A stretch of 64,000 bases of DNA, taken from positions 8,637-72,636 of the forward strand of contig JAGBEE010000003.1 of assembly GCA_017937135.1 (NCBI GenBank), given 5' to 3'. The position numbers were made by a program, and so were the translations under genes. The notes beneath the pieces are model-generated. The model did no database searches, was not told the origin of the DNA, and was given only the letters and a program-made list of their open reading frames with translations. How positions within the stretch are numbered: position 1 is the stretch's first letter; every line of letters starts with the position of its first letter. This document shows, in pieces, positions 4,038 to 50,941 of the stretch. This DNA is from Clostridia bacterium. Its GTDB lineage: Bacteria > Bacillota > Clostridia > Oscillospirales > CAG-272.

Positions 4038-6410
4038 TTATGCACCTAAATATTTTTTAATATCAGAAACGCCTGTGTATTTATTAGCTTGTCCGTTTTT
4101 AACAACTACAAGTGTAGGAGCCTGCTTAATAGAGAACTCCTCTACCAAATCAGCGTGCTCATTTGCTAAGAGCTTTTCATACTTAACGCCTGCCTTGTCA
4201 AGGAAGGAGCAAGCAATTTTACAGTTAGGGCAGGTTGCAGTTGTGAAAAGATAGATAGCATCATTATTTGCTTCTACCTCGCAAGCGCAAGCTTCCTCCT
4301 TTGCCTCAGGTGGTCTGCCATCGCGTGTAAGCTTAGATGTTTCAATGTTGTAAACAAGTCTGTCCTTGTATTCTTGGCTCTTACCATCGTTCCAGTTTTG
4401 AACAGGACGGTAGTAGCCTGTAATACGGCTATATACCTCAGTTCTTGAGCCACACTCAGGACAATGATACTCCTCGCCTGCGATATATCCGTGATTTTTA
4501 CATACAGAATATGTCGGGGAAAGAGTATAGTAAGGCAAACGATAGTTTTCTGCAATTTTTCTTACGAGATTTGCAGCAGCCTTCCAGCTTGGCAATTTCT
4601 CGCCAAGGAATGCGTGGAATACTGTACCTGATGTGTAAAGTGTTTGGAGCTCGTCTTGAATATCAAGAGCTGTAAAGATATCCTCTGTGTAGCCAACAGG
4701 CAAGTGTGAGGAGTTGGTGTAGTAAGGAGTATCGTCCTCTGTCTTTGCAGCAGTGATGATGTCGGGATAGTGCTTCTTGTCGTGCTTAGCAAGACGGAAC
4801 GAGGTTGATTCAGCAGGAGTAGCCTCAAGGTTGTAAAGGTCGCCATATTTTTCTTGATAGTCGGAAAGACGCTCTCTCATATGGTTAAGAACATCCTGTG
4901 TGAATTTTTGAGCCTTTTCGTTTGTAAGGTCCTTTTTAATCCAGCTTGCGTTCAAGCACGCCTCGTTCATACCAACAAGACCAATTGTTGAGAAGTGGTT
5001 ATTGAATGTACCAAGGTATCTCTTTGTGTATGGGTAAAGTCCTGAATCAAGGAGCTTTGTTATAACTGTACGCTTAACCTTAAGTGAACGGGCAGAAATG
5101 TCCATAAGTCTGTCAAGACGATTATAGAAGTCCTTTTCGTCCTTTGCAAGATAAGCAATTCTTGGCATATTGATGGTAACAACACCAACTGAGCCTGTAG
5201 ATTCACCACTACCGAAGAAGCCACCGGACTTCTTTCTAAGCTCACGAAGGTCGAGTCTCAAACGACAGCACATGGAACGAACGTCGCTTGGCTCCATATC
5301 ACTATTGATATAGTTAGAGAAGTAAGGAGTACCGTATTTTGAGGTCATCTCGAAAAGAAGCTTGTTGTTTTCTGTTTCTGACCAGTCAAAATTGCGAGTA
5401 ATTGAATAGGTTGGAATAGGATATTGGAAGCCTCTGCCATTAGCATCGCCCTCAATCATAACCTCGATAAATGCCTTATTTACCATATCCATTTCCTTTT
5501 GGCAGTCCTTGTACTTGAAGTCAACCTCTTTACCACCAATAATACAGTTAAGCTCAGCTAAGTCGTTAGGAACAACCCAGTCAAGAGTGATGTTTGAGAA
5601 TGGAGCCTGTGTACCCCAACGAGATGGAGTATTAACACCATAAATAAAGGACTCAATGCATTTTTTAACCTGTCCATAGGAAAGGTTGTCAATTTTTACA
5701 AATGGAGCAAGATATGTGTCGAATGATGAGAACGCCTGAGCGCCTGCCCATTCGTTTTGCATAATGCCAAGGAAGTTAACCATTTGGTTGCAAAGTGTAG
5801 CTAAGTGCTTAGCAGGAGCAGATGTAATCTTACCTGTAACTCCACCCAAGCCCTCTTGAATTAGCTGCTTAAGTGACCAACCAGCACAATAGCCTGTGAG
5901 CATTGAAAGGTCGTGGATATGAATGTCAGCGTTTCTATGAGCATTTCCGATTTCATCATCGTAAATCTCGGAAAGCCAGTAGTTTGCTGTTACAGCGCCG
6001 GAGTTGGAAAGAATAAGACCACCAACAGAGTAGGTAACGGTTGAGTTTTCCTTAACTCTCCAGTCGTTAATGTCAAGGTAGTTATCTACAATAGCCTTGT
6101 AGTCAACCATTGTTGCGCTCAAATTACGAATTTTTTCTCTTTGGCGACGGTAAATGATGTAAGCCTTAGCAACATCATCATAGCCAGCCTTAATAAGAAC
6201 AGATTCAACACTGTCCTGAATGTGCTCAACGGAAATCTTTCCGTCCTCAATTTTTGGCTCGAATTCTGCAGTTACCTTAAGTGCCAAGAAGTCGATAATA
6301 TCTTGGTTAAATTGCTTTTGACAAGCATCAAATGCTTGTGTGATGGCATCGCTGATTTTTTTAATGTTAAAATCAACAATCTTGCCGTCTCTTTTTACTA
6401 CTGTGTACAT
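4038..6410 (-). CDS. nrdD: Anaerobic (class III) ribonucleoside-triphosphate reductase with a C-terminal glutaredoxin/NrdH-like domain
   Basis: N-terminal ATP-cone (MYTVVKRDGKIVDFNIKKI), Zn-ribbon CKNHGY...CPECG, glycyl-radical motif SRITGYYRPV. A ~100-aa extension follows with CPNC and a thioredoxin-fold pattern (QAPTLVVV). Start moved to the ATG at 6410, which has AAGGAG 8 nt upstream. Confidence 0.92.
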   Translation of the reverse strand: MYTVVKRDGKIVDFNIKKISDAITQAFDACQKQFNQDIIDFLALKVTAEFEPKIEDGKISVEHIQDSVESVLIKAGYDDVAKAYIIYRRQREKIRNLSATMVDYKAIVDNYLDINDWRVKENSTVTYSVGGLILSNSGAVTANYWLSEIYDDEIGNAHRNADIHIHDLSMLTGYCAGWSLKQLIQEGLGGVTGKITSAPAKHLATLCNQMVNFLGIMQNEWAGAQAFSSFDTYLAPFVKIDNLSYGQVKKCIESFIYGVNTPSRWGTQAPFSNITLDWVVPNDLAELNCIIGGKEVDFKYKDCQKEMDMVNKAFIEVMIEGDANGRGFQYPIPTYSITRNFDWSETENNKLLFEMTSKYGTPYFSNYINSDMEPSDVRSMCCRLRLDLRELRKKSGGFFGSGESTGSVGVVTINMPRIAYLAKDEKDFYNRLDRLMDISARSLKVKRTVITKLLDSGLYPYTKRYLGTFNNHFSTIGLVGMNEACLNASWIKKDLTNEKAQKFTQDVLNHMRERLSDYQEKYGDLYNLEATPAESTSFRLAKHDKKHYPDIITAAKTEDDTPYYTNSSHLPVGYTEDIFTALDIQDELQTLYTSGTVFHAFLGEKLPSWKAAANLVRKIAENYRLPYYTLSPTYSVCKNHGYIAGEEYHCPECGSRTEVYSRITGYYRPVQNWNDGKSQEYKDRLVYNIETSKLTRDGRPPEAKEEACACEVEANNDAIYLFTTATCPNCKIACSFLDKAGVKYEKLLANEHADLVEEFSIKQAPTLVVVKNGQANKYTGVSDIKKYLGA

Positions 6411-6543
6411 TGTGAAATCTCCTTTTCTGTCAATTTTTTGGCGCACATCTTTTGTATTTCACTAAAGAAGCGCGCCGTATGCTCAAAAATATAAAATGTG
6501 GTATAAAATCACCCCTTATTTTGTGGGGGAGTGATACTATTAT

Positions 6544-7290: not shown

Positions 7291-7474
7291 AACATCTCCT
7301 TAAAAAACTTCATTATATATATTGTAGCATATAAGGGAGCGAAAAACAACAAGTAAAAATTAAGGTAAAAAAATTTAACAATTTAAAAAAATATGTGTAC
7401 ATTTATTATTTTTTATGTTAAAATAAATATAGGTCAAGAAACCTTGGCTGAATCTAATTTTGGAGGTACAAAAA

Positions 7475-7699
7475 ATGACTTGGTTCAATAAGCAAAGCCG
7501 TCTTGTACAAATTCTTCTTCTTTTGATTCCTGTTGTAAACTGGATTACAGAAATTGTTGTAAGATGGACCACATTCCTTAAAAAGCCCGGACTTATAAGA
7601 CTTATCGTATGTATTATCGTAACAGTTGGTGGTGGCTTTATATTTGGTTGGCTTGACCTTATCTGGATATTACTATTTAAACACTTCTTCCTTCAATAA
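7475..7699 (+). CDS. Small two-TM membrane protein, unknown function
   Basis: 74 aa from the ATG at 7475 (GGAGG 8 nt upstream; the TTG at 7460 is rejected). Two hydrophobic helices. Followed by a strong terminator. Confidence 0.55.
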   Translation: MTWFNKQSRLVQILLLLIPVVNWITEIVVRWTTFLKKPGLIRLIVCIIVTVGGGFIFGWLDLIWILLFKHFFLQ

Positions 7700-7707
7700 A
7701 TACATAA

Positions 7708-7740
7708 GGGGCTGTCGCATTAAGCGACGCCCCTTTTTTT
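7708..7740. terminator. Bidirectional terminator (outer hairpin of the left repeat)
   Basis: GGGGCTGTCGC-ATTAA-GCGACGCCCC followed by 8 T. It terminates the 7475..7699 gene on the + strand. Confidence 0.8.
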
Positions 7741-7834
7741 GGGGATAGTGAAATATGTGCAGAAGGGGTGAACTCGTACACGTAGGCGTACTTCGTACGG
7801 TAGAGTGCGAGGTCGCGCCTAAAAAACAGATGTT

Positions 7835-7871
7835 AAAATGAAGAGAGCTTGCAACAAAACCACAAGCTCTC
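7835..7871 (-). terminator. Inner terminator-like hairpin of the left repeat
   Basis: On the minus strand: GAGAGCTTGT...GCAAGCTCTC (one G:U) followed by TTCATTTT. Confidence 0.5.
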
Positions 7872-7972
7872 AACCTTTAAATTTTACTAAAATAAATGTT
7901 TATACTTAATTTCAAGAGGGAATGTGTCCTTATTTGGTCTGTGCTTATTGCAACATCCCCTTTTTGCTTGTA

Positions 7973-9934
7973 TTATTTTTCAATAACGAACACAGGCTTT
8001 TCACTAACGTTAATAGCTACAAAGCCATTTTCATTTTCAAGGTCCGTACGAAGACCATTATAGCGCTCGAATTCAAGCTCGGAGAGAATAAATTCGCCAT
8101 TTCCAACATTAAGCCTGTAGCCATCAACCTTGGTTGAATTGGAGGTTGGGCACCATACAGCATATCTTGCCTTGGAATCCTTTGTTAAGTATTTGAATAT
8201 CTTTACGTTTTCATTTCCAGAGTCAACCTCACACTCAAATGAAGTATTACCGATAATCTCCTTTGTTGTGTAAACGTAGTAGAAGGAGTCCTTTTTGTTA
8301 CCTTGAATTACGTTATTTGCGCTGATTTCGATAGGATGACGAACCAAGCCTGATGAGCCATATTTACCAACAGCAGTTTCCTCAGGACCACAGTCGCGTG
8401 ACATATACATAGCTGCGCGCTCAACGCCTATTGAGCTAAGGAGCAAATATTCACGAACAAGCCACATACCCTGTACCATACGTCCTGTATATTCACCGTA
8501 TGCGTGAGCAGATGTAGATGTTTTGTATGATTGGTTAGTATCCCAGCCAAATTCGGTAAGCCAAATTTCAAGGTTAGGATGATATCTGTCGCGCCAGTCC
8601 ATAATCTCCTCAAATGCGCCAACGATATTTCCTTCCTCGGGGCTAATACCGACGTAAATCTTATCTCCCTGGTCGCCTCTGTCCTCAATATTTATATCAA
8701 CTATCTTTTCGATTTCAGACTTGTCGTAGCACTTGCCACAGTATCTGTGCGCGTTGATTACGTCAAATGGGAGCTTGCCGTCTGGACGATTATGCTTTGC
8801 CCAAAACTCCATAGCACGTAGGTAGTTAGGGTTAAGACCTGCGCCACCCGACATAGACATAATAAAGTTAGGGTCAGCCTGCTTTACGCCGACATTTTTA
8901 TATTTTCCACAGTGTCCGTCGTAGCACATGCTTAAAAATGCTGCAAGCTCAAATGGTGAGAAGTACTGCTCACGACCTGACCACGTTCCGTCAGGCTCGT
9001 TAAGAGGCTCAAGAGCGTTAAGATATCCAAGACCTATCTTCTTTTCCTGTCCCTCATCAATCTGAATAAGCTCTGGGTCGATATTCTTGTTATGTCCGTA
9101 GCGCGCTACAAATTGGAAGAGCATAGTAGCATAGGACATATAGTTGTATGGGTCTGTTGAATCACAGGTTCCGTCCTTTGGAGTCCTTTTATGGTGAGTT
9201 GAAATAGTAGGGCAAACGTTTATTCCATATTCGTGCATACGCTTGTAATAATCGTCAAAGTCCCACATTTTATTTAAGCTTGGATTCATAGCTATAGTAG
9301 TAGCCTCACCGTTAGGAACGGTAGTCCACATCCAAGGGTGATACTCACGAATGTAGTTTACAGCACGGTTAATATCGTCAGCATCATTTATAAATGCATT
9401 CATACCAACAAAGCTGCCCAAATCCTTTTTCTTGTGTGGCTTTTTTGGCGGTGGAGTCAAATCAATATCCTCAACCTTATAGCCGTAAATTAAAATTTCA
9501 CTTGGCGCTTGGTTGTTGTTAAAGCTAAAGCTGATGTATCGAGTCTTGAAGCTCGTTTCAAAACCTGTCCACTTTCTTTGCTCGGGAGCAAGCACCTCGT
9601 TATATTCCCAGCTAAATGGAGTACCCATCTTAACTCTAACCTTACGAACACCGTAGTCAGCCTTGTCCTTTTCAGGCTTATAAGCGTCGTAGTCGTTGTA
9701 AATATACATATTAGTAATTTGGTAGATACCATCTAACTCAACAGTGAATGCAAGGTCGGTTTGACCAATCCACCAGTGGTCATGTCTTGGGTGAACCTGT
9801 GGAATTGCGCCCGGTGTGCCGTATAGTGGGTCACCATCGTTATCAAATTCGCAGAAAAAGTTAGAAACCCTTTCAATACCCATATCGTTGATAATCATTT
9901 CGGGTGTAATTCTGATTTTTTGTGAAGCTGCCAT
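7973..9934 (-). CDS. Clan GH-A-like glycoside hydrolase with an N-terminal beta-sandwich module; no signal peptide
   Basis: 653 aa. Acid/base-type LNEPDGTW and nucleophile-type WLTEFGWDTN motifs typical of (beta/alpha)8 clan A hydrolases. Paralog of 9968..11923. RBS AAGGAGAA. Confidence 0.75.
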   Translation of the reverse strand: MAASQKIRITPEMIINDMGIERVSNFFCEFDNDGDPLYGTPGAIPQVHPRHDHWWIGQTDLAFTVELDGIYQITNMYIYNDYDAYKPEKDKADYGVRKVRVKMGTPFSWEYNEVLAPEQRKWTGFETSFKTRYISFSFNNNQAPSEILIYGYKVEDIDLTPPPKKPHKKKDLGSFVGMNAFINDADDINRAVNYIREYHPWMWTTVPNGEATTIAMNPSLNKMWDFDDYYKRMHEYGINVCPTISTHHKRTPKDGTCDSTDPYNYMSYATMLFQFVARYGHNKNIDPELIQIDEGQEKKIGLGYLNALEPLNEPDGTWSGREQYFSPFELAAFLSMCYDGHCGKYKNVGVKQADPNFIMSMSGGAGLNPNYLRAMEFWAKHNRPDGKLPFDVINAHRYCGKCYDKSEIEKIVDINIEDRGDQGDKIYVGISPEEGNIVGAFEEIMDWRDRYHPNLEIWLTEFGWDTNQSYKTSTSAHAYGEYTGRMVQGMWLVREYLLLSSIGVERAAMYMSRDCGPEETAVGKYGSSGLVRHPIEISANNVIQGNKKDSFYYVYTTKEIIGNTSFECEVDSGNENVKIFKYLTKDSKARYAVWCPTSNSTKVDGYRLNVGNGEFILSELEFERYNGLRTDLENENGFVAINVSEKPVFVIEK

Positions 9935-9967
9935 CTTGTTTTCTCCTTGTTTTGTAGTAAGTAGTCT

Positions 9968-11923
9968 TTACTCACTAAATATAAGAATAGGTTTTTCGCT
10001 GACGTTTACTGTAACAATGCCATCCTTTACAGTAAGAGAAGAGGAAACACCGTCTGTATCTCCATTTTCAAACTGTGTAAGAGTAGCCTTAGTTCCATCT
10101 ATATTAAGCTTAAAGCCGTCAACCTTGATATCGTCCATGGTTGGACACCATAGAGCATAGCAGGATTTTCCCTCGCCGTTTTCAAAGCGATAAATCCAAA
10201 CGTTTTCATTTCCCGAATCGATAATCTCGGCAAAATGCATATCATTCATAGTCGCCTTTAGGGTGCTTATGTAATAATATGAGTCCTTGTATTCGCCATT
10301 AACCGTTACAACACCACTTGTGCCATATTTTCCAATGCCGGTTGCCTCATCACCCTCATCGCGTATCATATACATCGCAGCACGGTCAACACCAACAGAT
10401 GCGAACATAAAGTATGCACGCACAAGCCACATAGCTTGAAGCTGTCTTGCTGTGAAATTTGCGTATGGGTGGCACGCATTTTCGGTTTCATAGCTTGTAT
10501 TAGTATCCCAACCAAATTCAGTAACCCAAACCTCAATATCGGGATAATACTTATCTCTGTATTCGCAGAGCTTTTTAACCTCGTCGGTTATACCACCGAT
10601 TTCGGGGCAAACACCAACATAAACCCTGTATCCATTAAAGCTAATTAGCTTTTTACAATATGTATGAACATTAAATGCATCCATAGCAACCTTGCCATCG
10701 GAGCGATTATTTTCCATCCAGAAAACCATAGATTTTATGTATCTTGTCTGTATTCCCGCAAGACCTGCCATAGCAAGCTTCATATTTGGGTCTGCATTTT
10801 TGATGCCGATGCCACTCTTGCTCTCAGTCTTAACAGTGTTTACGTGTCCGTCATAAGCGCAGGAGGTGAGCGCTGCAAGCTCATATGGGGTAAAGCCGTC
10901 ATTTCCCTCACCATTTGGTTCATTTCCAGCCTCTATCCACGTAATGTAGCCAAGATTCATTCGTGTTCCACCTGATACGGTGTAAATTAAATCCTCGGTA
11001 TTTAACGGGTTGTTACCAAATCTAAGCGCTGTTTGATAAATAAGCTCGGAATACATAACGTATGCGCTCGGATCTGTTTTATCCTTGCCCTCAAGAGCAG
11101 GAGAAACGTTTGGGAACATAAAGCAGGGAACACACTGTACACCATGCCTTTTTGTTAATGAGCTATACGCGCTTGTGTATGTAGAGGTAACATTATCACC
11201 AAAGCTTACAGCCTCGTTTGGATATTTTGATTTATCATAAAGCCAAGCCCAGTTTATATAATCCCTAAAATAGCTTGCACATTTTATGTTCTTTTTGCCA
11301 TCTGAGTCTATTCTATTACCGTTCGCGCCAAGGAAATAGCTAAAATCCTTGTAATTGTGCGCCTCGGTATTGACAGGCTCATATTTTGATGTAGCATAGC
11401 CATAGAAAAGAATTTCCCAAGGAGCGTGCTCATTATCAAACAAAAGATTTACATATCTTGTTTCATAGTCAATCTCAATTTTGTGCCAGCCCTTGCCTAA
11501 GCCCTTCGCTTCATATTTTTCTTCATACTTAAAGGGAGTGCCAGCCTCGGCAGTAATTGATGAGGAGTCAGAGCCAAAATAAACGTAAAAGCATTCAACA
11601 TAGCATTTAAGTCCAAAATCAACAGTTACCTCGAAAATGTGTGTTTTGTCCTTGTCGGTTAAATCACCGTCATTATCTGCATCAAGCAGCTCAAGTGCGC
11701 TTTTTGGCGCTTGGTGCTTGGAAATATCTGGGGTGAGATGAATATTGCCAATGCTTGTTTGCTCATCAAACATAGGTGAGAAGTCCTTTAAGGACGTGCC
11801 TACATATGTCATATTCTCATAATCAATTGGTAGTAGCTTCGTGTCCTCTGAGCAAGCAGAGAAGGCTAATATAGCGCATAAAACCAAAGCGCAAAGGCAA
11901 ATCTTTAAAAACTTAGTCTTCAT
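9968..11923 (-). CDS. Clan GH-A-like glycoside hydrolase lipoprotein
   Basis: 651 aa. Lipobox signal peptide (LAFSAC). Motifs GNEPNGEG and WVTEFGWDTN. Same architecture as 7973..9934. Confidence 0.75.
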   Translation of the reverse strand: MKTKFLKICLCALVLCAILAFSACSEDTKLLPIDYENMTYVGTSLKDFSPMFDEQTSIGNIHLTPDISKHQAPKSALELLDADNDGDLTDKDKTHIFEVTVDFGLKCYVECFYVYFGSDSSSITAEAGTPFKYEEKYEAKGLGKGWHKIEIDYETRYVNLLFDNEHAPWEILFYGYATSKYEPVNTEAHNYKDFSYFLGANGNRIDSDGKKNIKCASYFRDYINWAWLYDKSKYPNEAVSFGDNVTSTYTSAYSSLTKRHGVQCVPCFMFPNVSPALEGKDKTDPSAYVMYSELIYQTALRFGNNPLNTEDLIYTVSGGTRMNLGYITWIEAGNEPNGEGNDGFTPYELAALTSCAYDGHVNTVKTESKSGIGIKNADPNMKLAMAGLAGIQTRYIKSMVFWMENNRSDGKVAMDAFNVHTYCKKLISFNGYRVYVGVCPEIGGITDEVKKLCEYRDKYYPDIEVWVTEFGWDTNTSYETENACHPYANFTARQLQAMWLVRAYFMFASVGVDRAAMYMIRDEGDEATGIGKYGTSGVVTVNGEYKDSYYYISTLKATMNDMHFAEIIDSGNENVWIYRFENGEGKSCYALWCPTMDDIKVDGFKLNIDGTKATLTQFENGDTDGVSSSLTVKDGIVTVNVSEKPILIFSE

Positions 11924-12109
11924 TTTATTTCATTAATATTCCATTCAAATTATCAATATAGAAAAATGCTACTTTAAGTATAATATAACATAGCGAAAAA
12001 GTCAATAAAATGTGCATTTTTTCCAAAAATAAATTCGGCTCAAATGTTATTTTTGCTTAAAGAGCACAAATATGCAAAATGCATCACATTAAGACAAAGA
12101 AAATATAGC

Positions 12110-12133
12110 TTTTTCAACAGTTGCGTTGAAAAA
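12110..12133. promoter_or_regulatory. Perfect 9-bp inverted repeat in the divergent control region
   Basis: TTTTTCAAC-AGTTGC-GTTGAAAAA, in the middle of the 453-bp spacer between the two divergent operons. Confidence 0.35.
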
Positions 12134-12300
12134 TACCCAACCCAGTGTTTAAAAAAGCATAAAAGATTACATTTTTTAAAAGCAAGATGCTTTGTTAATT
12201 TTTTTTGAACATACTACAAATAAAAAATGTTTTATCGACACTCCTTGACACTTTTTGCTTGATAACGCTCTTATATGGTAGCTTGTACCACTTGACAGAC

Positions 12301-12329
12301 TTGACTTTTTATATATTTTATGATATTAT
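12301..12329 (+). promoter_or_regulatory. Candidate SigA-type promoter of the lipoprotein operon
   Basis: TTGACT, 17-nt spacer, TATTAT. About 48 nt upstream of the ATG at 12377. Confidence 0.45.
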
Positions 12330-12376
12330 ATATTTCGGCTATAATATTAGTTAATAATTTATATAGGAGATAAAAT

Positions 12377-15300
12377 ATGAAGAAGATGAAAAAGGCGCTT
12401 ACCCTATTCTTAGCGCTCCTTATGCTCGCAACGGTTGTTTTGCAAATGGTTGCTTGCGGTGTGACAGAGGACCCTGTGGATACAGGCTCTGAGAATAATG
12501 TTGGTAATGCAACCTACACAGTGAAGATTAAAACACTTGGTAATATGCCACTTAGTGATGTTACTGTGTACTTAATCGACAAGGACGGAAATATCGTCGG
12601 CCGTCCAGGTGTAACCGATTTAGAGGGAGTTGTTTCCTTTACTGCACCTAAATCAAACGATTATTCTATTGAAATTTCTGACGGAGTGCCCGAGGGATAC
12701 TTAGTGGCAGACTCATATAAGCTAAGCGAGGTTGGAAATGAAATAATCCTTACATCAAAGGTAATTGATGATGAAAAAACCGACTCAAATTTTTATGAGA
12801 CGGGAGACATTATGTACGACTTTACCGTTACTGACGTTAATGGCAATGAGGTAAAGCTATCAAAGCTCCTTGAAAAGAACAAGGCAGTTTTATTAAACTT
12901 CTGGTATGTTGACTGCTCCTGGTGTCAAAAGGAATTCCCTGATATGAACGCAGTTTATAAGGACTATAAGGACAAGGGAATAGAAATTGTAGCTCTTAAT
13001 GCAGTTGATACAAATGCTGATATTCTTTCCTATAACAAGCCTTCATCAGGCTATCTTAAGGAGCCACTTGAATTTATTCTTGCTCGCGATACAGCAGGAA
13101 TTACATCTATGTTCAACGTTCAAGGCTTCCCAACAAGCGTAGTTGTTGACCGTTATGGTATGATTAGCGTTATTGAGTCTGGAGCTATAATAGGCGAATC
13201 ATATTTCAAAAATGCCTTTGACCACTTTATATCTCCTGTTTATGAGCAGGGCATTTATCAAAGCTTAAAGGAATTTACCCCTGTAATTAAGCCAAATGTT
13301 GATACTCCTACCTCAGAGGCTGTTAAGGATGCTGTACAAAATGGTGACTTTAACGCAACCTATTCAAATGATGAAAATGAGTACTCATGGCCATTTGTAA
13401 TTGGCGAATATGATGGCAAGAAGGTAATTTATCCTTCTAACAAGAAATACGACAACTCATATGCTACATTGTATATTGACATAGAGCTTCAAGCGGGTCA
13501 GGCATTTATGTTTGATTACTTCTCATCAACAGACCTTGGCTACGACGTTCTTACTATTTCTGCAACAGCAGACGGAATTACAAATGAAATTTATTCAATT
13601 TCAGGTATAGGCGAAGAGTGGGAGAAGTGCTGTGCATATGTTGCTAAGGAAACGGGAACATATCGCATTGCAATGTTCTATGTTAAGGATGAATCCGATT
13701 CCGAGGGCGATGATACAGTATATCTTACAAATCTAAGAGTTGTAGATAGCGAAGAGGTTGATGTTGAAACCTATATTACACGTCCGGCAGTATCAAAGCC
13801 AAACAGCACAGGCTCTGACTTTGAAAGCTATGTAGAAATTGTTCTTGGCGACGACGGATATTACCACGTTGGAACAAAGGACGGCCCAATTCTTCTTGCA
13901 AGACTTATGGGCGTAACACCATTTACTGATAAGTTCACAGACAGATACACAGTTAACGATACTCTTTATAAGAATTTTGTTACAACTGATGAAAACACAG
14001 GAATCTCTAAGTATGGTGAGTTCCTTATTGACGGTGAAAACTGCTTGACAGCATTTATTAGATATTGTAACTATGCATCAAATGCTTCTGTTACAGGCTT
14101 CTGTAGTGTAACACCTGAGCTCAAGACATATCTTGACGCATTTGCAAAGAAGTTCGGCACAGGCTATCACGAAAATCAATGGCTCCAAATGTGCTTCTAT
14201 CTTGATTCCTATGGAACAGACAAGGAATACGAGGACCCAATTAAGGGACTTACCTCATTTAGCGCATACGAGGCAGTAATGGGCGAGCCTAACTCTGTTT
14301 CATACAGTAAGATTCTTCTTCCAAGAGGAAAGCTTTATAGATTCGTTCCAACAGAATCTGGCGTATATAGATTCAGAACAAACTCTAAGCAAGAGGTTCT
14401 TGGCTGGATATTCATTAACGACCACGATTATTGGATAGCTAATGGCGATGATAGAACAATGTATGAGCAAAGTGATCAAGGCTCAAGAGAACCATACTAT
14501 ACAAATCTCGTTGACACAGGTAGAGTTGACCCTGAAACAAAGGAGCCAATTTACGAGGTTGATAACACAAATGCAGAAATCACTGCATACTTAGAGGCAG
14601 GTAAGGAATACTACGTATCCTTTGCATACTATGACCTCTATGGTGTAGGCACATTCACATTTGATATAAGCTACCTTGGTAGCACATACGACTTCTTTGT
14701 AGCTGCATCCTCTGGCGCATTTACAACAGAGCTTCTTCCAGGTGATATATTGGGTGATACTATCTCAGGTGGTGTTGATATTTATCTATCAGCTGACGGA
14801 TATTTCCATCACTTAATTAAGACCTACACAACAGAAGAAGAGGCGCAGGAGGCAGGATTAACTCTTGTACCAAGCGACGTATTACCTGATGATATGGGCA
14901 AATACTACGAGCTTTGTACCTATGATAAATGTACAGTATGTCCTAAGCATGCAAAGGAGCAAGGAGCAGACCTCTCAACAAAGTATTACCACTACCGTGG
15001 CTCAGTGCTTTATGCAGACTTTAAGTTCCCAACAAACATCTTCCAGACAGACCTTATTACTAACCTAATAGACAAGGGTGCGTTCAACTTCACAAGAACG
15101 GAAACAGATGAGGATGCGATTAAGAACGGCTATGTAACAAAGACCGATGACGAGCTCAAGAAGCTGTGGGGAGACAGCTATGAATATGCAATGGATTACT
15201 ATCAGATAGATGATTTAAGAAAAGGCATTTATCACGGAAAGGGTGAAGATAGAACGGAGGAAATTCGTTCTTACCTTGAAAGGATGATACCTGAAACAGT

Positions 15301-15466
15301 AGAAAATCCTGAGCTTCAGGGCTGTGTAATGGTTGATGAGGAGCTGGCTGACCTTCTCCAAAGCCTTATGGATAAGTACAGCTTGACAAACGAGGGCTAT
15401 TCAATAACACACTCATTTGCAAAGCTTTGCTACTACTACAAGCAGCTTGGCACAGTAATTGACTAA
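12377..15466 (+). CDS. Large surface lipoprotein with a prealbumin-like domain, a TlpA/ResA-like thioredoxin domain (CSWC) and uncharacterised C-terminal domains
   Basis: 1029 aa. Lipobox (QMVAC) then GVTEDPVDTGS. Carboxypeptidase-regulatory-like segment (YTVKIKT...VSFTAP). AhpC/TSA-type thioredoxin fold LLNFWYVDCSWCQKEFP...GFPTSVVVD. Confidence 0.85.
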   Translation: MKKMKKALTLFLALLMLATVVLQMVACGVTEDPVDTGSENNVGNATYTVKIKTLGNMPLSDVTVYLIDKDGNIVGRPGVTDLEGVVSFTAPKSNDYSIEISDGVPEGYLVADSYKLSEVGNEIILTSKVIDDEKTDSNFYETGDIMYDFTVTDVNGNEVKLSKLLEKNKAVLLNFWYVDCSWCQKEFPDMNAVYKDYKDKGIEIVALNAVDTNADILSYNKPSSGYLKEPLEFILARDTAGITSMFNVQGFPTSVVVDRYGMISVIESGAIIGESYFKNAFDHFISPVYEQGIYQSLKEFTPVIKPNVDTPTSEAVKDAVQNGDFNATYSNDENEYSWPFVIGEYDGKKVIYPSNKKYDNSYATLYIDIELQAGQAFMFDYFSSTDLGYDVLTISATADGITNEIYSISGIGEEWEKCCAYVAKETGTYRIAMFYVKDESDSEGDDTVYLTNLRVVDSEEVDVETYITRPAVSKPNSTGSDFESYVEIVLGDDGYYHVGTKDGPILLARLMGVTPFTDKFTDRYTVNDTLYKNFVTTDENTGISKYGEFLIDGENCLTAFIRYCNYASNASVTGFCSVTPELKTYLDAFAKKFGTGYHENQWLQMCFYLDSYGTDKEYEDPIKGLTSFSAYEAVMGEPNSVSYSKILLPRGKLYRFVPTESGVYRFRTNSKQEVLGWIFINDHDYWIANGDDRTMYEQSDQGSREPYYTNLVDTGRVDPETKEPIYEVDNTNAEITAYLEAGKEYYVSFAYYDLYGVGTFTFDISYLGSTYDFFVAASSGAFTTELLPGDILGDTISGGVDIYLSADGYFHHLIKTYTTEEEAQEAGLTLVPSDVLPDDMGKYYELCTYDKCTVCPKHAKEQGADLSTKYYHYRGSVLYADFKFPTNIFQTDLITNLIDKGAFNFTRTETDEDAIKNGYVTKTDDELKKLWGDSYEYAMDYYQIDDLRKGIYHGKGEDRTEEIRSYLERMIPETVENPELQGCVMVDEELADLLQSLMDKYSLTNEGYSITHSFAKLCYYYKQLGTVID

Positions 15467-15480
15467 TCAATAAGCTGATA

Positions 15481-15504
15481 TGCCACACGCACACGCGTGT
15501 GGCA
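15481..15504 (+). other. Intercistronic GC-rich hairpin
   Basis: TGCCACACGC-ACAC-GCGTGTGGCA (10 bp), with no T-run. It lies between the first and second lipoprotein genes. Confidence 0.5.
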
Positions 15505-15537
15505 TTGGCTCTTATGATAGTGAAATTTGGAGTAAAA

Positions 15538-17208
15538 ATGAAGAAATCAAAGATACTTTTAATAATAAGCGTGCTCGTTTGCTTTATGCTCCTTGTGTGC
15601 TCCTGTGGAGAGGGTGATCCCGTAGATACATCGAGTGGCACAAATGACGAAACGACACAGACATATACCGTAAAGGTAGTAAACTATAAGGGTGAAGCGC
15701 CGGATAAGGACATTATAGTTGACTTTATGAAGGGCGAACAAATAGTAACTACAAAAAGAACAAATGACAAGGGCGAGGTAAGCGTAGCTCTTGAAAAGGG
15801 CGAATACAAAATAGTGCTTTCATATGCAAAGGGCGCGCCCTATTATGACGCAAGCAAGGCAATATTGACACCAGAGAATAACTCAGTTGAAATTATGCTT
15901 TACGACCTTCCTTTACAGGATAAAATTACAATTTCTCCTGCATATTGGAATGACGAAACGCTTGAATATGACCGTAAGGTATATAATGCAGTTCTTATCA
16001 ACGAGGGTGCAACCCTTGTAAATATAGATGACAAAAACGGTTCATATTACGTATTTACCCCAACGCGAGGCGGTATTTATAAAATTGGCTGTATTGCAAG
16101 CGCCGACGTTAAATTCGGATATTTCGGTGATGCAAACTACGTTCAAGCCGAGAGCCTTGAGCATTTATACAAGGACGGATATTTTGAAATTGAAATTAAG
16201 GACAGTGGTATAAACATAGGAGAGGGAGGAACAACACGCTTGGTATTTGGTGTTACCTCTAAAAAATCAACCGACTGTGTTATTACTATTGAGCGTACAG
16301 GTAATCCTAAGGCAGACCCGCTAAGAATTGACGAAATGCCAAGAGAGGTCTCAGATACAGAATACAAATACGACTATCTTAATTACTTAATAACCGACTT
16401 TGATATTACAAATAAGGAGCTGAAAATCGTATTTAACGAAAACGATGGCTTCTATCATTTGAATACACAAGACGGACCTGTTATTTTTGTAAGAGTAGCA
16501 AGCGATAATGCTTATTCAATATCCTTCTATGATATATGTCAGCTCACATCGCTTCATATGTATGAATATGATGAGGACGGCGCACCTATAAAATACCATA
16601 ATTACAACCCAATTTTTGAGGCATATGCAGAAAAATGCGATGGTGCAGGAATTTGTCCTCTTACAAGCGAGCTTATGAATGCTATCAAAAATGCAGGCGA
16701 GGAAAAGAATTGGTGGAACTTTGAAAATGAGGAAACACCAATGCTTTCAATGACAATTGAAGGCTTGGAATCTGGCGTAACAAAGGAAAACATCTGCCTT
16801 GAAAATGCGTGGGCGTTTGCTTGCTGTTACGTGGATTTTGATGCATTTGGCTCGGAAAGCAGTCCAATCAAATTAGAAATTGGCGACCCTTACGAGAGTA
16901 ACGTAAATGGTACATCTGTTACAAGCTATATAAAATACAACGCCTTAGTAGGCACAGAGGCAACATACCTTAAGCCAGCAACCTTAGGTGGTTATTTAAC
17001 TATTGAGGGCGCAAAAAATATTACAGTAGTATATGATGGCGTAACATACGTAGCTGATAGTGAGGGCAATATAACCGTTGATGGTGTAGAATTTGAGGGC
17101 GAGAATATAGTAGTTCATATCAGTGACCCGGAAAAGACAGCCACAATCACAGCGACAGAAAATGAAAGCGAAATTCGCTTCCAATTTACAACAAGCGAAT
17201 TAAGCTAA
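15538..17208 (+). CDS. Surface lipoprotein with a prealbumin-like domain and a domain shared with 12377..15466
   Basis: Start moved to the ATG at 15538 (GGAG upstream). Lipobox LLVCSC then GEGDPVDTSSG. Segment NDGFYHLNTQDGPVIFVRV...CPLTSELMNAIK aligns with DDGYYHVGTKDGPILLARL...CSVTPELKTYLD of the upstream protein. Confidence 0.8.
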   Translation: MKKSKILLIISVLVCFMLLVCSCGEGDPVDTSSGTNDETTQTYTVKVVNYKGEAPDKDIIVDFMKGEQIVTTKRTNDKGEVSVALEKGEYKIVLSYAKGAPYYDASKAILTPENNSVEIMLYDLPLQDKITISPAYWNDETLEYDRKVYNAVLINEGATLVNIDDKNGSYYVFTPTRGGIYKIGCIASADVKFGYFGDANYVQAESLEHLYKDGYFEIEIKDSGINIGEGGTTRLVFGVTSKKSTDCVITIERTGNPKADPLRIDEMPREVSDTEYKYDYLNYLITDFDITNKELKIVFNENDGFYHLNTQDGPVIFVRVASDNAYSISFYDICQLTSLHMYEYDEDGAPIKYHNYNPIFEAYAEKCDGAGICPLTSELMNAIKNAGEEKNWWNFENEETPMLSMTIEGLESGVTKENICLENAWAFACCYVDFDAFGSESSPIKLEIGDPYESNVNGTSVTSYIKYNALVGTEATYLKPATLGGYLTIEGAKNITVVYDGVTYVADSEGNITVDGVEFEGENIVVHISDPEKTATITATENESEIRFQFTTSELS

Positions 17209-17222
17209 TATAGGAGGAAAAT

Positions 17223-19589
17223 ATGGCAAATATCAAAAAAATGCCCCTTATTTTACTTGTGCTTTGTATTCTTATGAGTGCACTTTTAGTTATCACATCA
17301 TGTGGTGGCACAGAGGACCCGGTTGATACAAGCTCAGGCACAGAATCGGGCAATGGTGGTACAAACACAGACCAAACACCAAAATACGTGATTACCGTGC
17401 TTGATGAATACGAGCTTGGCGTTGAGGGCGTTACAGTTCAGCTTTGCATTGGCGAAAACTGCTTAATGCCTGTAAAAACAGATGCAAACGGTAATGCAAC
17501 CTTTGAAAGCGAGCTTACAGGAACAGCATATGTAACAATAAATAGCGTTCCCGATGGCTACGAAAAGCCAAGCGAGAAGGTTTATCTTGAGGACGGACAA
17601 ACAACCGTAACAATTGAGCTGAATTCAATTGTTGAATACAGCGTAAAGGCTAAGCTTGCGCTTTTTGATAAAAATCTTGTTAATGTAGTTGCAGAGCTAA
17701 GAAGGGTTAGCGATAACTCAGTAGTTAATACACAGGTAACAAACGAATATGGTGTAGCAAAATTCTTAGCGCCAAATGGTGAATATTACGTTTCATTCTC
17801 ACACAAAAACCCAGCCTTCAAGCTCTCAAACCCCGATAAGGAGGGCGAGGCAACAAAGGCATATGGCACATCAAGGCTCATAAATGCAGAATTTATCGAA
17901 ACCTTTGACACACTTGACTACAAGCTCAACATAAAAAATGTAGCTGGCAAGGCAGAGTATGGCATTGTGGTTGAGCTTTACGATGAAAGCTTTACGCTCA
18001 TTGATACATATTATTCCAATGAAAATGGCGACATAGAATTTAGCGCACAAAACGGAAAATATATTGCAGTTGCAAGCTTTAAGAATACACAAACAGTGTA
18101 TGCTTTCAGCCAATATGATTCAATCAGTGGCGAAATGGTGCTTAACACTGAGGATAAGGGCTCAAGCGAAAGCTATGCAGAGCTTGTTCTTAGTATGTTC
18201 GGACATAACGCAACAAGTGGAAAATGGTATTACACATTGAATACCGAAAAGAAAATGATAGTTGTATATAGCGAAACAGCAACAGTTGTATATAACGGAA
18301 AAACCTATACCCCTGATAACGAGGGCAAAATCAGTGTAGTATTTGAAAATGGTAATGGAGTATATCAGATTAACGGTGCAGATGCATACGTTGAATATAT
18401 GGGCGCACCGGGAACTGAATCAAATCCAATTATTATTGACTCAGCAAGCATAAACGGCTATGAAATAACCCTCGATCTTTTAGAGGGTGAGAGCTACTAT
18501 TATGCCTTCAACGCAAATGACGATGCTACAATTACTGTAACAACCAATGATAGCATTCAAATAGTAATAAATGAGGTTTTAAAAAGCTCTTTACCTGTAA
18601 TAAAAGGTGACTACGTTGTAATTCGCCTTTCATCTGATGGAGGCAAAATTGAGGGCGCAAAGGTTAATTTTGCATTTGCAAAGACATATGCAGATTATCA
18701 GATAACCGTTAATAAGGATGGCCAGAGCGCACCTGATGGCACAGCCGTTGAGCTTTACAAGTATGACACAAGCACATGGGAATATCAATTAGTTACAAGC
18801 ACTACAACTAAAAATGGTATTGCAGCCTTTGAAAATGTTGAGGTTTATGCATTTTACTATGTAAAGGTAGTTGCACCTGCTGATTACGAGACTGAAAATG
18901 AGTATGAGCCATTCTTCAATGGCGCAACAAGCACAACAATAGAGCTTAGCCACGTAAGAGATGGTTCACTTGAATATCCATTCTTAATTGATGATTCATA
19001 TGCAGGCGGACTCTTATATGATTATGATTTTACCATAGGCGCAGGTGAAACACTCTACTTTGAGGCAGCACCAAATAACTGTGTGCTCAGCGTAAGCATA
19101 AGTGGCATTATTGTTCAGATATTAGAGGATAAGAATAGCGACGGAATTTACGAAACAGTAACAGATGTTGATTCAAGCTACGTATTTGAGGACAAAATGA
19201 ACCCACCAACAATTCTTATTTCTATAAAGAATGAGGGCGAGGCTGCAGAGGGATCAATTTCCTTTGGCGCTAATAATGGCGAGGTAGGCTCATCCTATGA
19301 TAACGCAATTGAGCTTGACGAGGCAGGAGCATATATAGCTGAAATTACAGAGGGCAAAAATGTTTATTATCTGTACAATGGCGACTATACAGGAAGCACC
19401 TTAAAAATCACAGTAACAGATGCAAACGGAAAGCTCATTTCCGTTACAGCAACTCTTGCTGGCACAAGCGAGTCAGTAGAGACAGACAATGAAATAACCT
19501 CTGATTCAGGCGCATCACTAATATTTGCAATCTCATCACAGGATGCTGATTTTACAGGAAATATTAGCTTTACTATAACAGTTGAATAA
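17223..19589 (+). CDS. Surface lipoprotein with repeated prealbumin-like and PPC-like beta-sandwich modules
   Basis: 788 aa. Lipobox VITSC then GGTEDPVDTSSG. About 4 carboxypeptidase-regulatory-like segments and about 3 segments of the G(S/T)ExxP(I/F)xI...YY type. RBS AGGAGG. Confidence 0.8.
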   Translation: MANIKKMPLILLVLCILMSALLVITSCGGTEDPVDTSSGTESGNGGTNTDQTPKYVITVLDEYELGVEGVTVQLCIGENCLMPVKTDANGNATFESELTGTAYVTINSVPDGYEKPSEKVYLEDGQTTVTIELNSIVEYSVKAKLALFDKNLVNVVAELRRVSDNSVVNTQVTNEYGVAKFLAPNGEYYVSFSHKNPAFKLSNPDKEGEATKAYGTSRLINAEFIETFDTLDYKLNIKNVAGKAEYGIVVELYDESFTLIDTYYSNENGDIEFSAQNGKYIAVASFKNTQTVYAFSQYDSISGEMVLNTEDKGSSESYAELVLSMFGHNATSGKWYYTLNTEKKMIVVYSETATVVYNGKTYTPDNEGKISVVFENGNGVYQINGADAYVEYMGAPGTESNPIIIDSASINGYEITLDLLEGESYYYAFNANDDATITVTTNDSIQIVINEVLKSSLPVIKGDYVVIRLSSDGGKIEGAKVNFAFAKTYADYQITVNKDGQSAPDGTAVELYKYDTSTWEYQLVTSTTTKNGIAAFENVEVYAFYYVKVVAPADYETENEYEPFFNGATSTTIELSHVRDGSLEYPFLIDDSYAGGLLYDYDFTIGAGETLYFEAAPNNCVLSVSISGIIVQILEDKNSDGIYETVTDVDSSYVFEDKMNPPTILISIKNEGEAAEGSISFGANNGEVGSSYDNAIELDEAGAYIAEITEGKNVYYLYNGDYTGSTLKITVTDANGKLISVTATLAGTSESVETDNEITSDSGASLIFAISSQDADFTGNISFTITVE

Positions 19590-19690
19590 ACAACATAAAA
19601 AGGGGATGTTGCAATAAGTTTAGACCAAATAAGGACACATTCCCTCTTGAAATTAAGTATAAACATTTACTTTAGTAAAATTTTAAGGTT

Positions 19691-19727
19691 GAGAGCTTGC
19701 GGTTTTGTTGCAAGCTCTCTTCATTTT
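19691..19727 (+). terminator. Inner terminator-like hairpin of the right repeat
   Basis: GAGAGCTTGC-GGTTTTGTT-GCAAGCTCTC followed by TTCATTTT. Confidence 0.55.
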
Positions 19728-19820
19728 AACACCTGTTTTTTAGGCGCGACCTCGCACTCTACCGTACGAAGTACGCCTACGTGTACGAATCTCGCCTTGG
19801 GCACACATTTCACTATCCCT

Positions 19821-19858
19821 AAAAAAGGGGCGTCGCTTCAATGCGACAGCCCCTTTTG
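19821..19858. terminator. Bidirectional terminator (outer hairpin of the right repeat)
   Basis: A-run, GGGGCGTCGC-TTCAAT-GCGACAGCCCC, T-run. It serves both the + strand operon and the convergent gene 19914..20177. Confidence 0.8.
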
Positions 19859-19913
19859 TTATAATATCAAACCAAATAGCATAAATTTTATAAAACAATA
19901 ACATATGTGTGAA

Positions 19914-20177
19914 CTATTTTAATGCTTCTATCGCTAATTTATGACCTATTTCAAAGCCCTTTGTAAAATATTCCTCGTAAAAAAGCATGTTTAATTCACA
20001 TAGCAGGTCCTCGTATTGCTCTACTATTTCATTATTTTCCTTGTCAAGTAATGATAAAATTTTATCATATGCATCGTTAACTTGCTTGGTTAATCGAATT
20101 ATATTTCCGTTTTCAATTCCACATTTTTCGTAATAAAACAAATTACCTCTAAAAATTTTCTTAATTGTTCCTTTCAT
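19914..20177 (-). CDS. Small helical protein of unknown function
   Basis: 87 aa, predicted all-helical, ending FTKGFEIGHKLAIEALK. Resembles small proteins often paired with XRE regulators in Firmicutes accessory DNA (from memory, unverified). RBS AAAGGAG. Confidence 0.6.
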   Translation of the reverse strand: MKGTIKKIFRGNLFYYEKCGIENGNIIRLTKQVNDAYDKILSLLDKENNEIVEQYEDLLCELNMLFYEEYFTKGFEIGHKLAIEALK

Positions 20178-20506: not shown

Positions 20507-20511
20507 ATAAA

Positions 20512-20545
20512 AAAATCTCAACGAGCCTTCGTTGAGATTTTTTAT
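20512..20545. terminator. Bidirectional rho-independent terminator
   Basis: AAATCTCAACG-AGCCTT-CGTTGAGATTT flanked by A and T runs, between convergent genes. Confidence 0.85.
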
Positions 20546-49516: not shown

Positions 49517-50941
49517 ATGAAAAAATTTATATTTTTATTAATTTCACTTTTGTTGATTATATCATTACTTGCATCCTGTGGAGAAGGTAGCGACCCAATA
49601 GACACCTCTTCACAATTGGAAACGGGTAGTGAGGAAAACAAAAACCCCGAGCCCAAACCCGAACCCGAACCTATGCCCGACCCCGAGCCCGAGCCTGAGC
49701 CTGACCCAGAACCAAACCCCGACCCAGAACCTAAACCCGAGCCCGAGCCTGAGCCCGAAATTACAAGCATTGAAATTGCCAAGGATGGTATTAGCAATTA
49801 TGTAATAGTTTACTCACTTAATAACAAGGTGGTAAAGGAAAATGCGCTTTTATTTCAGTCATATTTAAAGGATACATATTCAATAGAGCTTGACTGTATA
49901 AAGACAAGCGAGGCACAGGCATCACAGGACAAGAGGATAATTTTCGGCGCATATAAGGGCGACGAGGCGCAAAGACTCACAAGTGGAGATTTTGGAGTGT
50001 TTATGGATGGAGATGACCTCGTTATAACTGCTACAACAAACAACCTATATCCCTACCTTATGGACATATTAAGAGATGATATTTTAAAAGACATTCAAAA
50101 CGGTAGCTGGACAGTAAACAAGGAAGATGATTTTATATACACAAATTCATCATATAAGGATATTGGCTATGTAGAATATATGGTTAGTAAGAATGGTAGC
50201 TTCTCCGAGACACTTTACGAGAAAATTCTAACCTACCAAACTTTTACGTCTGAGGATGGAACAGTATTGCCATACAGAATGTACGTTCCATATGAATATG
50301 ATAAGGATAAGAGCTACCCTGTGTTTGTTTTCTTGCACGGAGCAGGTGAGCGTGGAACTGACAATGTATCACAGCTAAAGAATTTGATAAAGCCATTATT
50401 TGCATTTGAAGGCTCACCGCTTCTTGATGCGATAGTTATTTGTCCTCAATGCCCTTCAGCTAATGACAACAAATGGGTAGATACACCTTGGGAAAACGGA
50501 AACTATCGCGTTGACAAGGTGGCACAGTCAAACGAATTAAAGGCAGTAATGGAGCTGTTTGAAAAAATTGAAAATACCTATTCAACAGATTTGAATAGAT
50601 ACTATGCAATGGGGCTTTCAATGGGTGGCTTTGGCGCGTGGGATTTACTTATGCGCGCGCCCGAAAGATTTTGTGCAATAGTTGCCCTTTGTGCAGGTGC
50701 AGACCCATCTATGGCAGAGGCGCTTAAAAATAAGCCGATTTACACCTTGCACGGAACTAATGATAACGTTGTTCCAATTACAGGCACACAGGAAATGGTA
50801 GATGCATTAAAGAAGGCGGGAAGCACCTCTATAATATACGAGGAAATGCAAGACTATGGGCACAACGTATGGGGATACGTATCCACAAAGCCTGAGATTT
50901 TAGAGTGGCTATTTTCACAAGGGGTGAGCGAAAATGAGTAG
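49517..50941 (+). CDS. Lipoprotein esterase (alpha/beta hydrolase) with a Pro-Glu-rich linker
   Basis: 474 aa. Lipobox LLASC then [13 protein letters not shown] linker. C-terminal hydrolase motifs [20 protein letters not shown] (GxSxG), [16 protein letters not shown]. Confidence 0.8.
49643..49759 (+). repeat. Low-complexity (P-E/D/K)n coding repeat
   Basis: [39 protein letters not shown], with 6-nt periodic CCNGAN DNA. The antisense frame gives a spurious GS-rich ORF. Confidence 0.9.

Follow-up and report, generated by a model that had tools for sequence, protein, structure and literature searches.

The locus described here raises the question of whether a repeated multi-hairpin sequence, found beyond the last genes of two operons, is a functional RNA element or only an intergenic repeat. 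The sequence is in a 64,000-nt stretch of contig JAGBEE010000003.1 from a Clostridia bacterium, the whole of which is termed the window. It is a unit of ~260 nt present in two inverted copies, at positions 19597–19857 (+) and 7965–7706 (−). The initial annotation described it as a multi-hairpin module lying in the transcript sense of both operons, and this description holds: the copies are inverted relative to each other and each has the sense of its own operon. Sequence comparisons place the repeat in a hitherto undescribed family, whose multi-hairpin members occupy transcribed noncoding regions of uncultured ruminant-gut Clostridia. The interpretation we prefer, which is offered tentatively, is that the unit is a co-transcribed RNA cassette, consisting of a terminator and a docking hairpin, and that it would function as RNA, on the same strand as the gene next to it.

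Two hairpins recur in the ~22 related copies, which represent 10 independent genomic sites in ruminant-gut Clostridia metagenome-assembled genomes (MAGs) and metagenomes. Hairpin B lies between AUUUAAGGUU on its 5' side and UUC(C)UU on its 3' side, and has the form A-tract, GC stem, U-tract, as in a two-way intrinsic terminator. Its stem occurs in 10 sequence variants among 16 copies, in which 136 of 137 pairs are Watson-Crick, one is G·U and none is a mismatch; the stem variants include GAGAGCUUGC, GAAAACAGGC, GAAAAAC, GAAAAGCC, GAAAUUC, GAUAUUUUGC, AAGAGGUC, GAAAAGCGCAC and others. The second hairpin has a stem of 12–16 bp (P1) that is ~15–30 nt downstream of hairpin B, beyond a U-rich linker. 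The P1 sequence varies in nearly every copy and its complementarity is kept, e.g., AGGCGCGA/UCUCGCCU in the window, UUUGACGAAAACG/CGUUUUCGUCAAA in locus L020 and AACCGCGUUCGCACG/CGUGUGAACGCGGUU in L027. Thirteen of 15 P1 pairs change on both sides, and 81.5% of P1 cells are paired compared with 26–47% when the partners are slid. The P1 covariation score is 0.336 vs 0.126 in shuffles, with 0 of 500 shuffles reaching the observed value. RNAalifold independently recovers both P1 and P2, a small helix in the tip of P1. The initial annotation would have been refuted by homologs that lack covariation, and the homologs do covary: compensatory changes that keep the helix across genomes, which are characteristic of structured RNAs, are present in both P1 and hairpin B.

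The tip that caps P1 is ~25 nt and nearly invariant: CUCUACC-GUAC-(3–4 nt loop)-GUAC-GCCNACG. This family-defining element corresponds to what the initial annotation termed a CGTACG-rich core. The GUAC/GUAC pairs show no variation in the members, the loop variants are AAA, GAA, GCAA, ACCA, ACAA and UCA, and one sub-family has the small tip helix extended to GCUGUAC/GUACAGC. The tip remains near-invariant across contigs that range in G+C from 0.41 to 0.55, a degree of conservation that may be likened to that of a riboswitch core. A pyrimidine tract, A(A)UUUCUC..CCC, is found 3' of P1 in all members.

The two window copies have the following parts:

19597–19857, + strand: right copy of the ~260-nt unit (repeat search and pairwise alignment)
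7706–7965, − strand: left copy of the ~260-nt unit (repeat search and pairwise alignment)
19602–19654, + strand: hairpin 1, GGGGATGT/ACATTCCC, with 8 pairs including one G·U and a 37-nt loop
19685–19727, + strand: terminator-like hairpin B, AAGGTT followed by the 10-bp stem GAGAGCTTGC (19691–19700) / GCAAGCTCTC (19710–19719) and TTCATTTT (terminator scan)
7835–7877, − strand: hairpin B of the left copy, GAGAGCTTGT/GCAAGCTCTC, with a single G·U (terminator scan)
19742–19797, + strand: P1-core hairpin with arms AGGCGCGA (19742–19749) and TCTCGCCT (19790–19797), 7 of 8 positions paired
19757–19787, + strand: core CTCTACCGTACGAAGTACGCCTACGTGTACG, part of the P1-core hairpin; this is the tip CTCTACC-GTAC-GAA-GTAC-GCCTACG..., with P2 formed by CGTAC (19763–19767) and GTACG (19771–19775)
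7765–7820, − strand: P1-core hairpin of the left copy, with the P1 3' arm changed to TTCACCCCT and an identical tip (7805–7775)
19804–19820, + strand: pyrimidine-rich tract CACATTTCACTATCCCT, the counterpart of the tract found 3' of P1 in all members
19821–19857, + strand: predicted outer bidirectional terminator, A6-GGGGCGTCGC-TTCAAT-GCGACAGCCCC-T4, stem region 19827–19857 (fold and terminator scan)
7706–7741, − strand: predicted outer bidirectional terminator of the left copy (terminator scan)

The unit spans AAAAAGGGG to GCGACAGCCCCTT in both copies when these are aligned pairwise. A repeat search of the window gives inverted arms of 192 nt and 96% identity (7774–7965 and 19597–19788), adjoined by arms of 41 nt and 83% identity (7731–7771 and 19790–19830). 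The terminal G+C-rich hairpin is near-equal in the two copies and differs only by small indels. The core 29-mer occurs twice in the window vs 0.00 expected in shuffles, and both copies fold much better than shuffles (z = −5.5 and −5.3). No further copy was found in the window by the covariance model with filters off, the next match scoring 16 bits. In the minimum-energy fold the 5' arm of hairpin 1 pairs alternatively with a downstream CACTATCCC tract.

Hairpin B and the outer hairpins of the window copies have the properties of intrinsic terminators, i.e., a G+C-containing stem of at least 5 bp, a short loop and a U-run. The terminator scan lists 19691–19719 and 7871–7843, each with 13 pairs and the tail TTCATTTTAA; it lists the outer hairpins on the opposite strand, where termination is predicted from sequence and fold. 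The outer hairpin of the right copy is thereby predicted to end, on the minus strand, the convergent DUF6809 gene (19914–20177, −), and that of the left copy to end, on the plus strand, a convergent open reading frame (ORF) for a 74/79-aa membrane protein (7460–7699, +). All four parts named in the initial annotation are present. Its 10-bp hairpin is hairpin B, which is conserved as a structure across the family, and the ~100 nt it placed between two terminators do hold the conserved portion. Its first hairpin and outer terminator are not clearly common to the other family members.

Several other relationships were considered and not retained. Homology between the first ~90 nt of the window unit and a "module A" of the rimP leader (GAC..AAAUA.AGAGGCAUAACCAAAAUUAAAAG) is ambiguous in alignment. 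Long-range pairing of AAGGU.GA with the tip CUCUACC or with the CU tract has mismatches at a variable position, shows no covariation in L013 and is not predicted by RNAalifold. The AAGG segment appears better explained by local pairing with UUCC/CUUU after hairpin B. An apparent likeness to 16S rRNA (AAGGUUGAAA, a GCAA loop and an anti-Shine-Dalgarno-like tract) or to a tRNA D-arm is without an Rfam rRNA or tRNA signal.

A search of GTDB with the core 20-mer led to one genome, the sheep-colon Clostridia MAG L001. It has a 31-nt stretch identical to the window at another site, the 5' leader of rimP-nusA-ylxR-L7Ae-infB, in sense orientation. Three further units, also in sense orientation, are in tandem directly 3' of infB in the same 8-kb locus, with a period of ~245–275 nt. 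RimP-anchored look-ups show the unit in the rimP leaders of L001, L012, L013, L031 and L035 and rimP leaders without it in L008–L011 and L014–L016; the rimP leader of L029 has a different repeat instead. More units follow infB in L029, L031 and L033, and L033 also has the unit upstream of rimP. The exact 20-mer of the window has 0 matches in JGI metagenomes because most members have A and not G in the loop. A degenerate pattern that allows two variable positions gave 12 loci in these metagenomes, 5 of which are true; the other 7 are chance or coding matches without a P1 stem. The five true loci are as follows:

L019: the spacer from ychF to an ABC-F gene, with two copies in tandem
L020: after a BspA-LRR gene, together with diverged and half units
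L023: after an RlmKL-like methyltransferase gene
L025: in the interval from a bona fide T-box (RF00230, 125 bits) to the start of the gene that it precedes
L027: after a DUF2179 gene

A covariance model (R1) built from 13 copies scores 14 copies at 70–90 bits and ~9 diverged copies at 18–55 bits. Orthologous rimP-leader and infB-trailer units are diverged in sequence, and both hairpins are kept. The unit was first taken to be specifically a 3' module. This does not hold for the family, whose members are found in 3' trailers, in 5' leaders (of rimP, and downstream of the T-box) and in tandem arrays (three copies after infB, two between ychF and the ABC-F gene). Hairpin B passes the terminator consensus in 3' trailers, and in 5' leaders it is missing the GC stem or the U-tail; the cassette would therefore be read through in leaders.

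These loci have some additional features. L020 has an array of related but rearranged modules at 1200–2180 (+). A single unit is complete, a second is diverged, with the tip GAGUAC-UCA-GUAC, and there are two "half" units in which GGTACGCCTACGCTC comes first, directly after a hairpin and TTTAATATAAT; TACGCCTACGG is present in one terminator loop. Past the tandem array of L001, positions 1–190 (−) contain copies of another palindromic repeat (…GTCATTCTGGAACGAAACGCAGTGAAGTGATAGAATCTC… / …ATCGCTAACGCTYCAGRRTGACAA…), and the infB trailer is a hot spot for several repeat families. The rimP leader of L029 (~6300–6480, +) has about five short hairpins spaced by UAUGGAAUC, another repetitive structured insert. 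A promoter, TTGCAA-N17-TATAAT, is conserved upstream of rimP in L001 (6040–6090, −), L008, L012, L013, L014, L029, L031 and L035. Directly 3' of it, in all rimP leaders with or without the repeat, is a conserved hairpin GGCGAGAGAGGGC...GUCCUCUCUC with a U-run; this hairpin probably serves the rimP-nusA operon as its native attenuator. The gene that follows the T-box and the repeat in L025 (1–55, −) starts with MKELAKTYAPQEFEERIY, a short sequence that resembles an aminoacyl-tRNA synthetase N-terminus (ValRS-like).

Copies are clustered, with four in 8 kb in L001, three in 13 kb in L033 and two in the window. The tandem arrays and the presence or absence of the unit at orthologous sites show that it multiplies within genomes. 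Six public short-read contigs with the 788-aa gene that precedes the right window copy (L002–L007) all end 37–62 nt past its stop, within the repeat, which shows that the repeat breaks assemblies. These properties are also those of a selfish non-autonomous repeat, similar in kind to BOX, REP or miniature inverted-repeat transposable elements (MITEs), that spreads between terminator-proximal sites and has hairpins that serve its own propagation as RNA or single-stranded DNA; the host would merely tolerate the element or use its terminators. The several copies within a few kb, the tandem arrays, the presence or absence at the orthologous rimP leader, the 96% identity of the window copies, the breaks in short-read contigs and the similar ends of the window copies in inverted orientation (AAAAGGGGATGTTGC vs the reverse complement AAAAGGGGCTGTCGC) are all consistent with it. 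However, the arms are variable and the centre invariant, which is the opposite of terminal repeats recognized by a transposase, terminal repeats are not shared across the family, and no target-site duplication is visible, although the borders are blurred by divergence. Neither a transposase nor a RAYT or reverse transcriptase is encoded by any of the five large ORFs in the 11.6-kb segment between the window copies. In addition, the unit is retained at orthologous sites with compensatory changes, and it is strictly co-oriented with genes, including in the leaders of essential genes. A purely selfish element is a serious but doubtful explanation.

The unit is co-oriented with the adjoining gene at 10 of 10 independent sites (binomial p = 0.002). 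As the window copies are mutually inverted within 12 kb, the bias follows transcription and not replication. One leader copy is downstream of the conserved rimP promoter and another is between a T-box and its gene, which implies that the sense strand of leader copies is transcribed within the mRNA. In the preferred interpretation as a co-transcribed cassette, hairpin B in the window would be the intrinsic terminator of the operon, and the outer G+C-rich hairpin a bidirectional back-stop that would also end the convergent gene. Read-through or leader transcripts would carry the P1-core hairpin. The invariant tip on a stem that is free to vary would be a docking site for a putative conserved factor that acts in trans and is more likely a protein than an RNA, and the docked factor may set the fate of the RNA by processing, 3'-end protection or decay.

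Some points weigh against this interpretation. The docking partner is hypothetical, and sense transcription past hairpin B in the window is a prediction. The multi-copy, tandem and presence/absence pattern fits equally well a selfish repeat without a host function. The family sample is small, with several of the ~22 copies orthologous, and covariance-model alignments are biased towards the structure of the model. P1 of the left copy is weakened, with 6 of 8 positions paired. The opposite strand of the unit also folds better than shuffles (z = −5.4), and the P1 wobbles are 4 sense-only vs 8 antisense-only. Because the wobbles are not sense-biased and the opposite strand folds equally well, an antisense RNA or single-stranded DNA could be the form that is structured.

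A single substitution in the 10-bp stem of the left copy had earlier been taken as a hint of selection on the transcribed strand. The C-to-T change is real (19700 vs 7862) and produces a G:U pair in the transcript sense, but the hint does not extend to the family, where wobbles of 4 vs 8 are not informative for strand assignment. A function of the opposite strand would consist of an antisense RNA that starts near the purine-rich tract and runs through the P1-core to hairpin B as a shared bidirectional terminator, or of a short antisense ORF. The order of body and then terminator on that strand is typical of a small RNA gene, hairpin B is two-way (A-tract and U-tract), antisense-only wobbles are in excess and the two strands fold equally well. 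A Shine-Dalgarno-like sequence and ATG precede P1' in both window copies, with antisense ORFs of 22 and 28 aa. The ORF frames differ among members and between the window copies, the latter due to a 1-nt indel, and the frame of the right copy (MCAQGEIRTRRRTSYGRVRGRA) is preserved neither in the left copy nor elsewhere in the family. With inconsistent frames and a tip that is invariant at all three codon positions, coding on either strand is excluded. Furthermore, no conserved antisense promoter was found, hairpin B of leader copies is too weak to terminate in either direction, and leader copies must be transcribed in sense. An antisense function is thus very unlikely.

The pyrimidine tract bears on another explanation, a trans-acting small RNA derived from the 3' untranslated region (UTR) or made from its own promoter, in which the tract (UCCC/CUCC) pairs with Shine-Dalgarno regions of targets. 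The P1-core would serve as its body, either structural or protein-binding, with the outer hairpin as terminator. A CU-rich tract is present 3' of P1 in every member, e.g., AAUCUCCCCCUUCUCC in L020 and CUCCACCUCCC in unit B of L001; the tandem arrays recall multi-copy small RNA loci, and a strong terminator closes the window unit. On the other hand, no consistent sigma-70 promoter (−35/−10) is found upstream of hairpin B or P1, many members have no terminator after the tract, the tract is far less conserved in sequence than the tip, and leader copies are embedded in mRNAs. We consider a trans-acting small RNA quite unlikely.

The tip might alternatively be the recognition site of a dedicated trans-acting machinery, which we rate as unlikely. 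This may be a regulator that ties together translation-related operons, and the linked operons may be those with the rimP-nusA-infB leader and trailer, the ychF/ABC-F spacer, the T-box-controlled gene and the RlmKL-like methyltransferase. It may also be an RNA-level copying system that has moved the cassette to terminator-proximal sites in sense orientation. Either one, if true, would be a new kind of bacterial cis-RNA system.

The setting of the window copies was also analyzed. Two divergent operons are located between them, at 7973–11923 (−) and 12377–19589 (+), and each copy is 3' of the last gene of its operon. The right copy begins 7 nt past the TAA stop (19587–19589) of a 788-aa gene and the left copy 7 nt past the TAA stop (7975–7973) of a 653-aa gene, each in the sense of that gene. 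These terminal genes are unrelated (best BLASTP E = 2.2), so the repeat pair is not a by-product of gene duplication. The segment 7966–19596 (11.6 kb) consists of the two operons of large proteins, with five large ORFs. Its Pfam matches are weak or partial: Glyco_hydro_cc-like (651 aa), AhpC/TSA-redoxin (1029 aa) and SdrD_B/SpaA-type (788 aa); two proteins of the segment are without any Pfam match. The G+C of the segment is 0.398, equal to that of the flanks, and that of the window overall is 0.39. Gene order of the window is kept in all six contigs with the 788-aa gene as far as each extends. L002 crosses the left copy to a radical-SAM gene in the same arrangement as the window, and L003 extends as far as the beginning of the left copy.

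The fact that the inverted pair flanks exactly two divergent operons is compatible with a role at the DNA level, with the repeats as substrates for recombination or inversion of the 11.6-kb segment, or with the palindromic tip (CGTAC-N3-GTACG) as a protein-binding site. The tip has a 13-bp palindrome, and the wobble statistics fit a strand-neutral palindrome. However, the other members are single, in direct tandem or in leaders and do not bracket cassettes, and a duplex binding site does not need the covariation of P1 and hairpin B. The segment does not differ in G+C from its flanks, no recombinase is nearby, and the six contigs keep the gene order as far as they extend. A DNA-level role is most improbable, and a genomic island or inversion cassette at 7966–19596 was rejected on the G+C value and the lack of a recombinase. 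A target of a diversity-generating retroelement was likewise rejected, in that differences between copies are not adenine-specific and no reverse transcriptase domain is present in the ORFs of the segment.

The unit does not match any Rfam 15 family at the gathering threshold in a scan of the whole window, a check that the initial annotation had suggested. Gathering matches elsewhere in the window are 6S RNA (RF00013, 53.9 bits) at 55399–55625 (−) and an 89-nt tRNA gene at 52572–52660 (+). Permissive Rfam scans of 19500–19950, the L001 leader and the L001 array give only sub-threshold chance matches, such as RsaE with 25 bits vs 79 required; a match to the HIV-1_SD splice donor (E = 0.08) is attributed to chance. 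In an Rfam scan of nine related loci, the only match was the T-box in L025. Phage and plasmid collections have no blastn match to the unit, viral contigs gave 0 matches in three scans, and a phage or plasmid origin was rejected on this basis. The core sequence was not found in the literature. The initial annotation allowed for a match to a known repeat or insertion-sequence remnant; the unit does belong to a multi-copy repeat family, but not to a known repeat or to an insertion-sequence remnant.

The window has other features outside the copies. At 49634–49759 and 47516–48187 there are consecutive CCNGAN codons, which encode a Pro-Glu/Pro-Lys linker, together with a direct repeat of 300 nt at 82% identity and with 372-nt spacing; these are probably repeated domains of a large surface protein. 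The terminator scan shows a perfectly symmetric two-way terminator, AAAAAATCTCAACGA..TCGTTGAGATTTTTT, at 20510–20543 between convergent ORFs.

If the cassette interpretation is true, little-studied gut Clostridia bear a conserved RNA hairpin cassette in the UTRs of many operons, including those of core translation genes. A covariance model, a defined tip and natural variants of a leader with or without the unit would then provide a handle on a new RNA-binding factor or processing pathway. The repeat also accounts for the breaks that short-read assemblies of these genomes show behind certain genes. If the unit is merely selfish, it is still useful for annotation and assembly, and biologically ordinary.

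Comparison with known systems helps to place the family. Intrinsic terminators are the simplest case. The window hairpin B and outer hairpin conform to the consensus of stem plus U-run, but the P1-core is not explained by termination, and hairpin B in leaders is without a GC stem or U-tail.

The nut-type sites of rrn operons and phage lambda have a boxB hairpin followed by boxA, UGCUCUUUAACAA. In a similar way, the rimP-leader, infB-trailer and L019 members have a hairpin followed a few nt on by ...UUUCUGCUCUU..., with UGCUCUUUA in L012, and some copies are in the nusA operon. However, the window copies and L020, L023, L025 and L027 are without the boxA-like string, which is therefore not a family feature. 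The boxA consensus GCUCUUUA(A)CAA does not follow the hairpin in all members, as UGCUCUU is found only in the rimP, infB and L019 members. The unit was therefore rejected as a boxA/nut antitermination site, the match being limited to a sub-family.

Correia elements of Neisseria, ERIC of enterobacteria and bcr1 of the Bacillus cereus group have a stem formed from conserved terminal inverted repeats and produce target duplications. They resemble the present family as short noncoding co-transcribed repeats with long stems, which can be RNase substrates and alter mRNA stability. The family has no conserved terminal inverted repeats, and target duplications are not visible in it. The ends of the window unit are alike at 13 of 15 positions, as might be found in a MITE or Correia element, but the other members share neither end. 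When rimP leaders with and without the unit are compared, the borders are blurred by divergence and no target-site duplication is visible.

REP/BIME sequences of Enterobacteria and Pseudomonas are imperfect palindromes of ~35–40 nt with a GTAG foot, mostly in alternating orientation and tied to a RAYT gene. Like the family, they are multi-copy hairpins in 3' UTRs near stop codons, are transcribed with the upstream gene, and can protect 3' ends or terminate transcription. The family unit differs in its length of 150–260 nt and in combining two distinct hairpins with an invariant tip of 25 nt. Its CTAC is inside the tip and not at the foot of a stem, and its tandem copies are direct. No transposase, including RAYT, is present among the Pfam-scanned ORFs near the copies, in a search limited to the 64-kb window and short loci.

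BOX elements of Streptococcus pneumoniae are modular intergenic repeats, boxA-boxB-boxC, whose conserved end modules pair with each other. They are similar to the family in being modular, multi-hairpin, multi-copy, noncoding and located in transcribed intergenic regions, and both can influence nearby genes by way of RNA structure. The two are not similar in sequence; the family has variable arms, an invariant tip and a sense orientation at 10 of 10 sites, and belongs to another host clade.

Judged from its sequences and predicted folds, the family would be closest in its workings to intergenic repeats that are structured and co-transcribed, namely BOX, REP/BIME, Correia/ERIC and bcr1, but it is without their defining features and turns their logic around, in that its arms vary and its centre is invariant. 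If the cassette interpretation is true, it adds to bacterial intergenic repeats a type that has a variable stem and an invariant tip and is always in the sense orientation.

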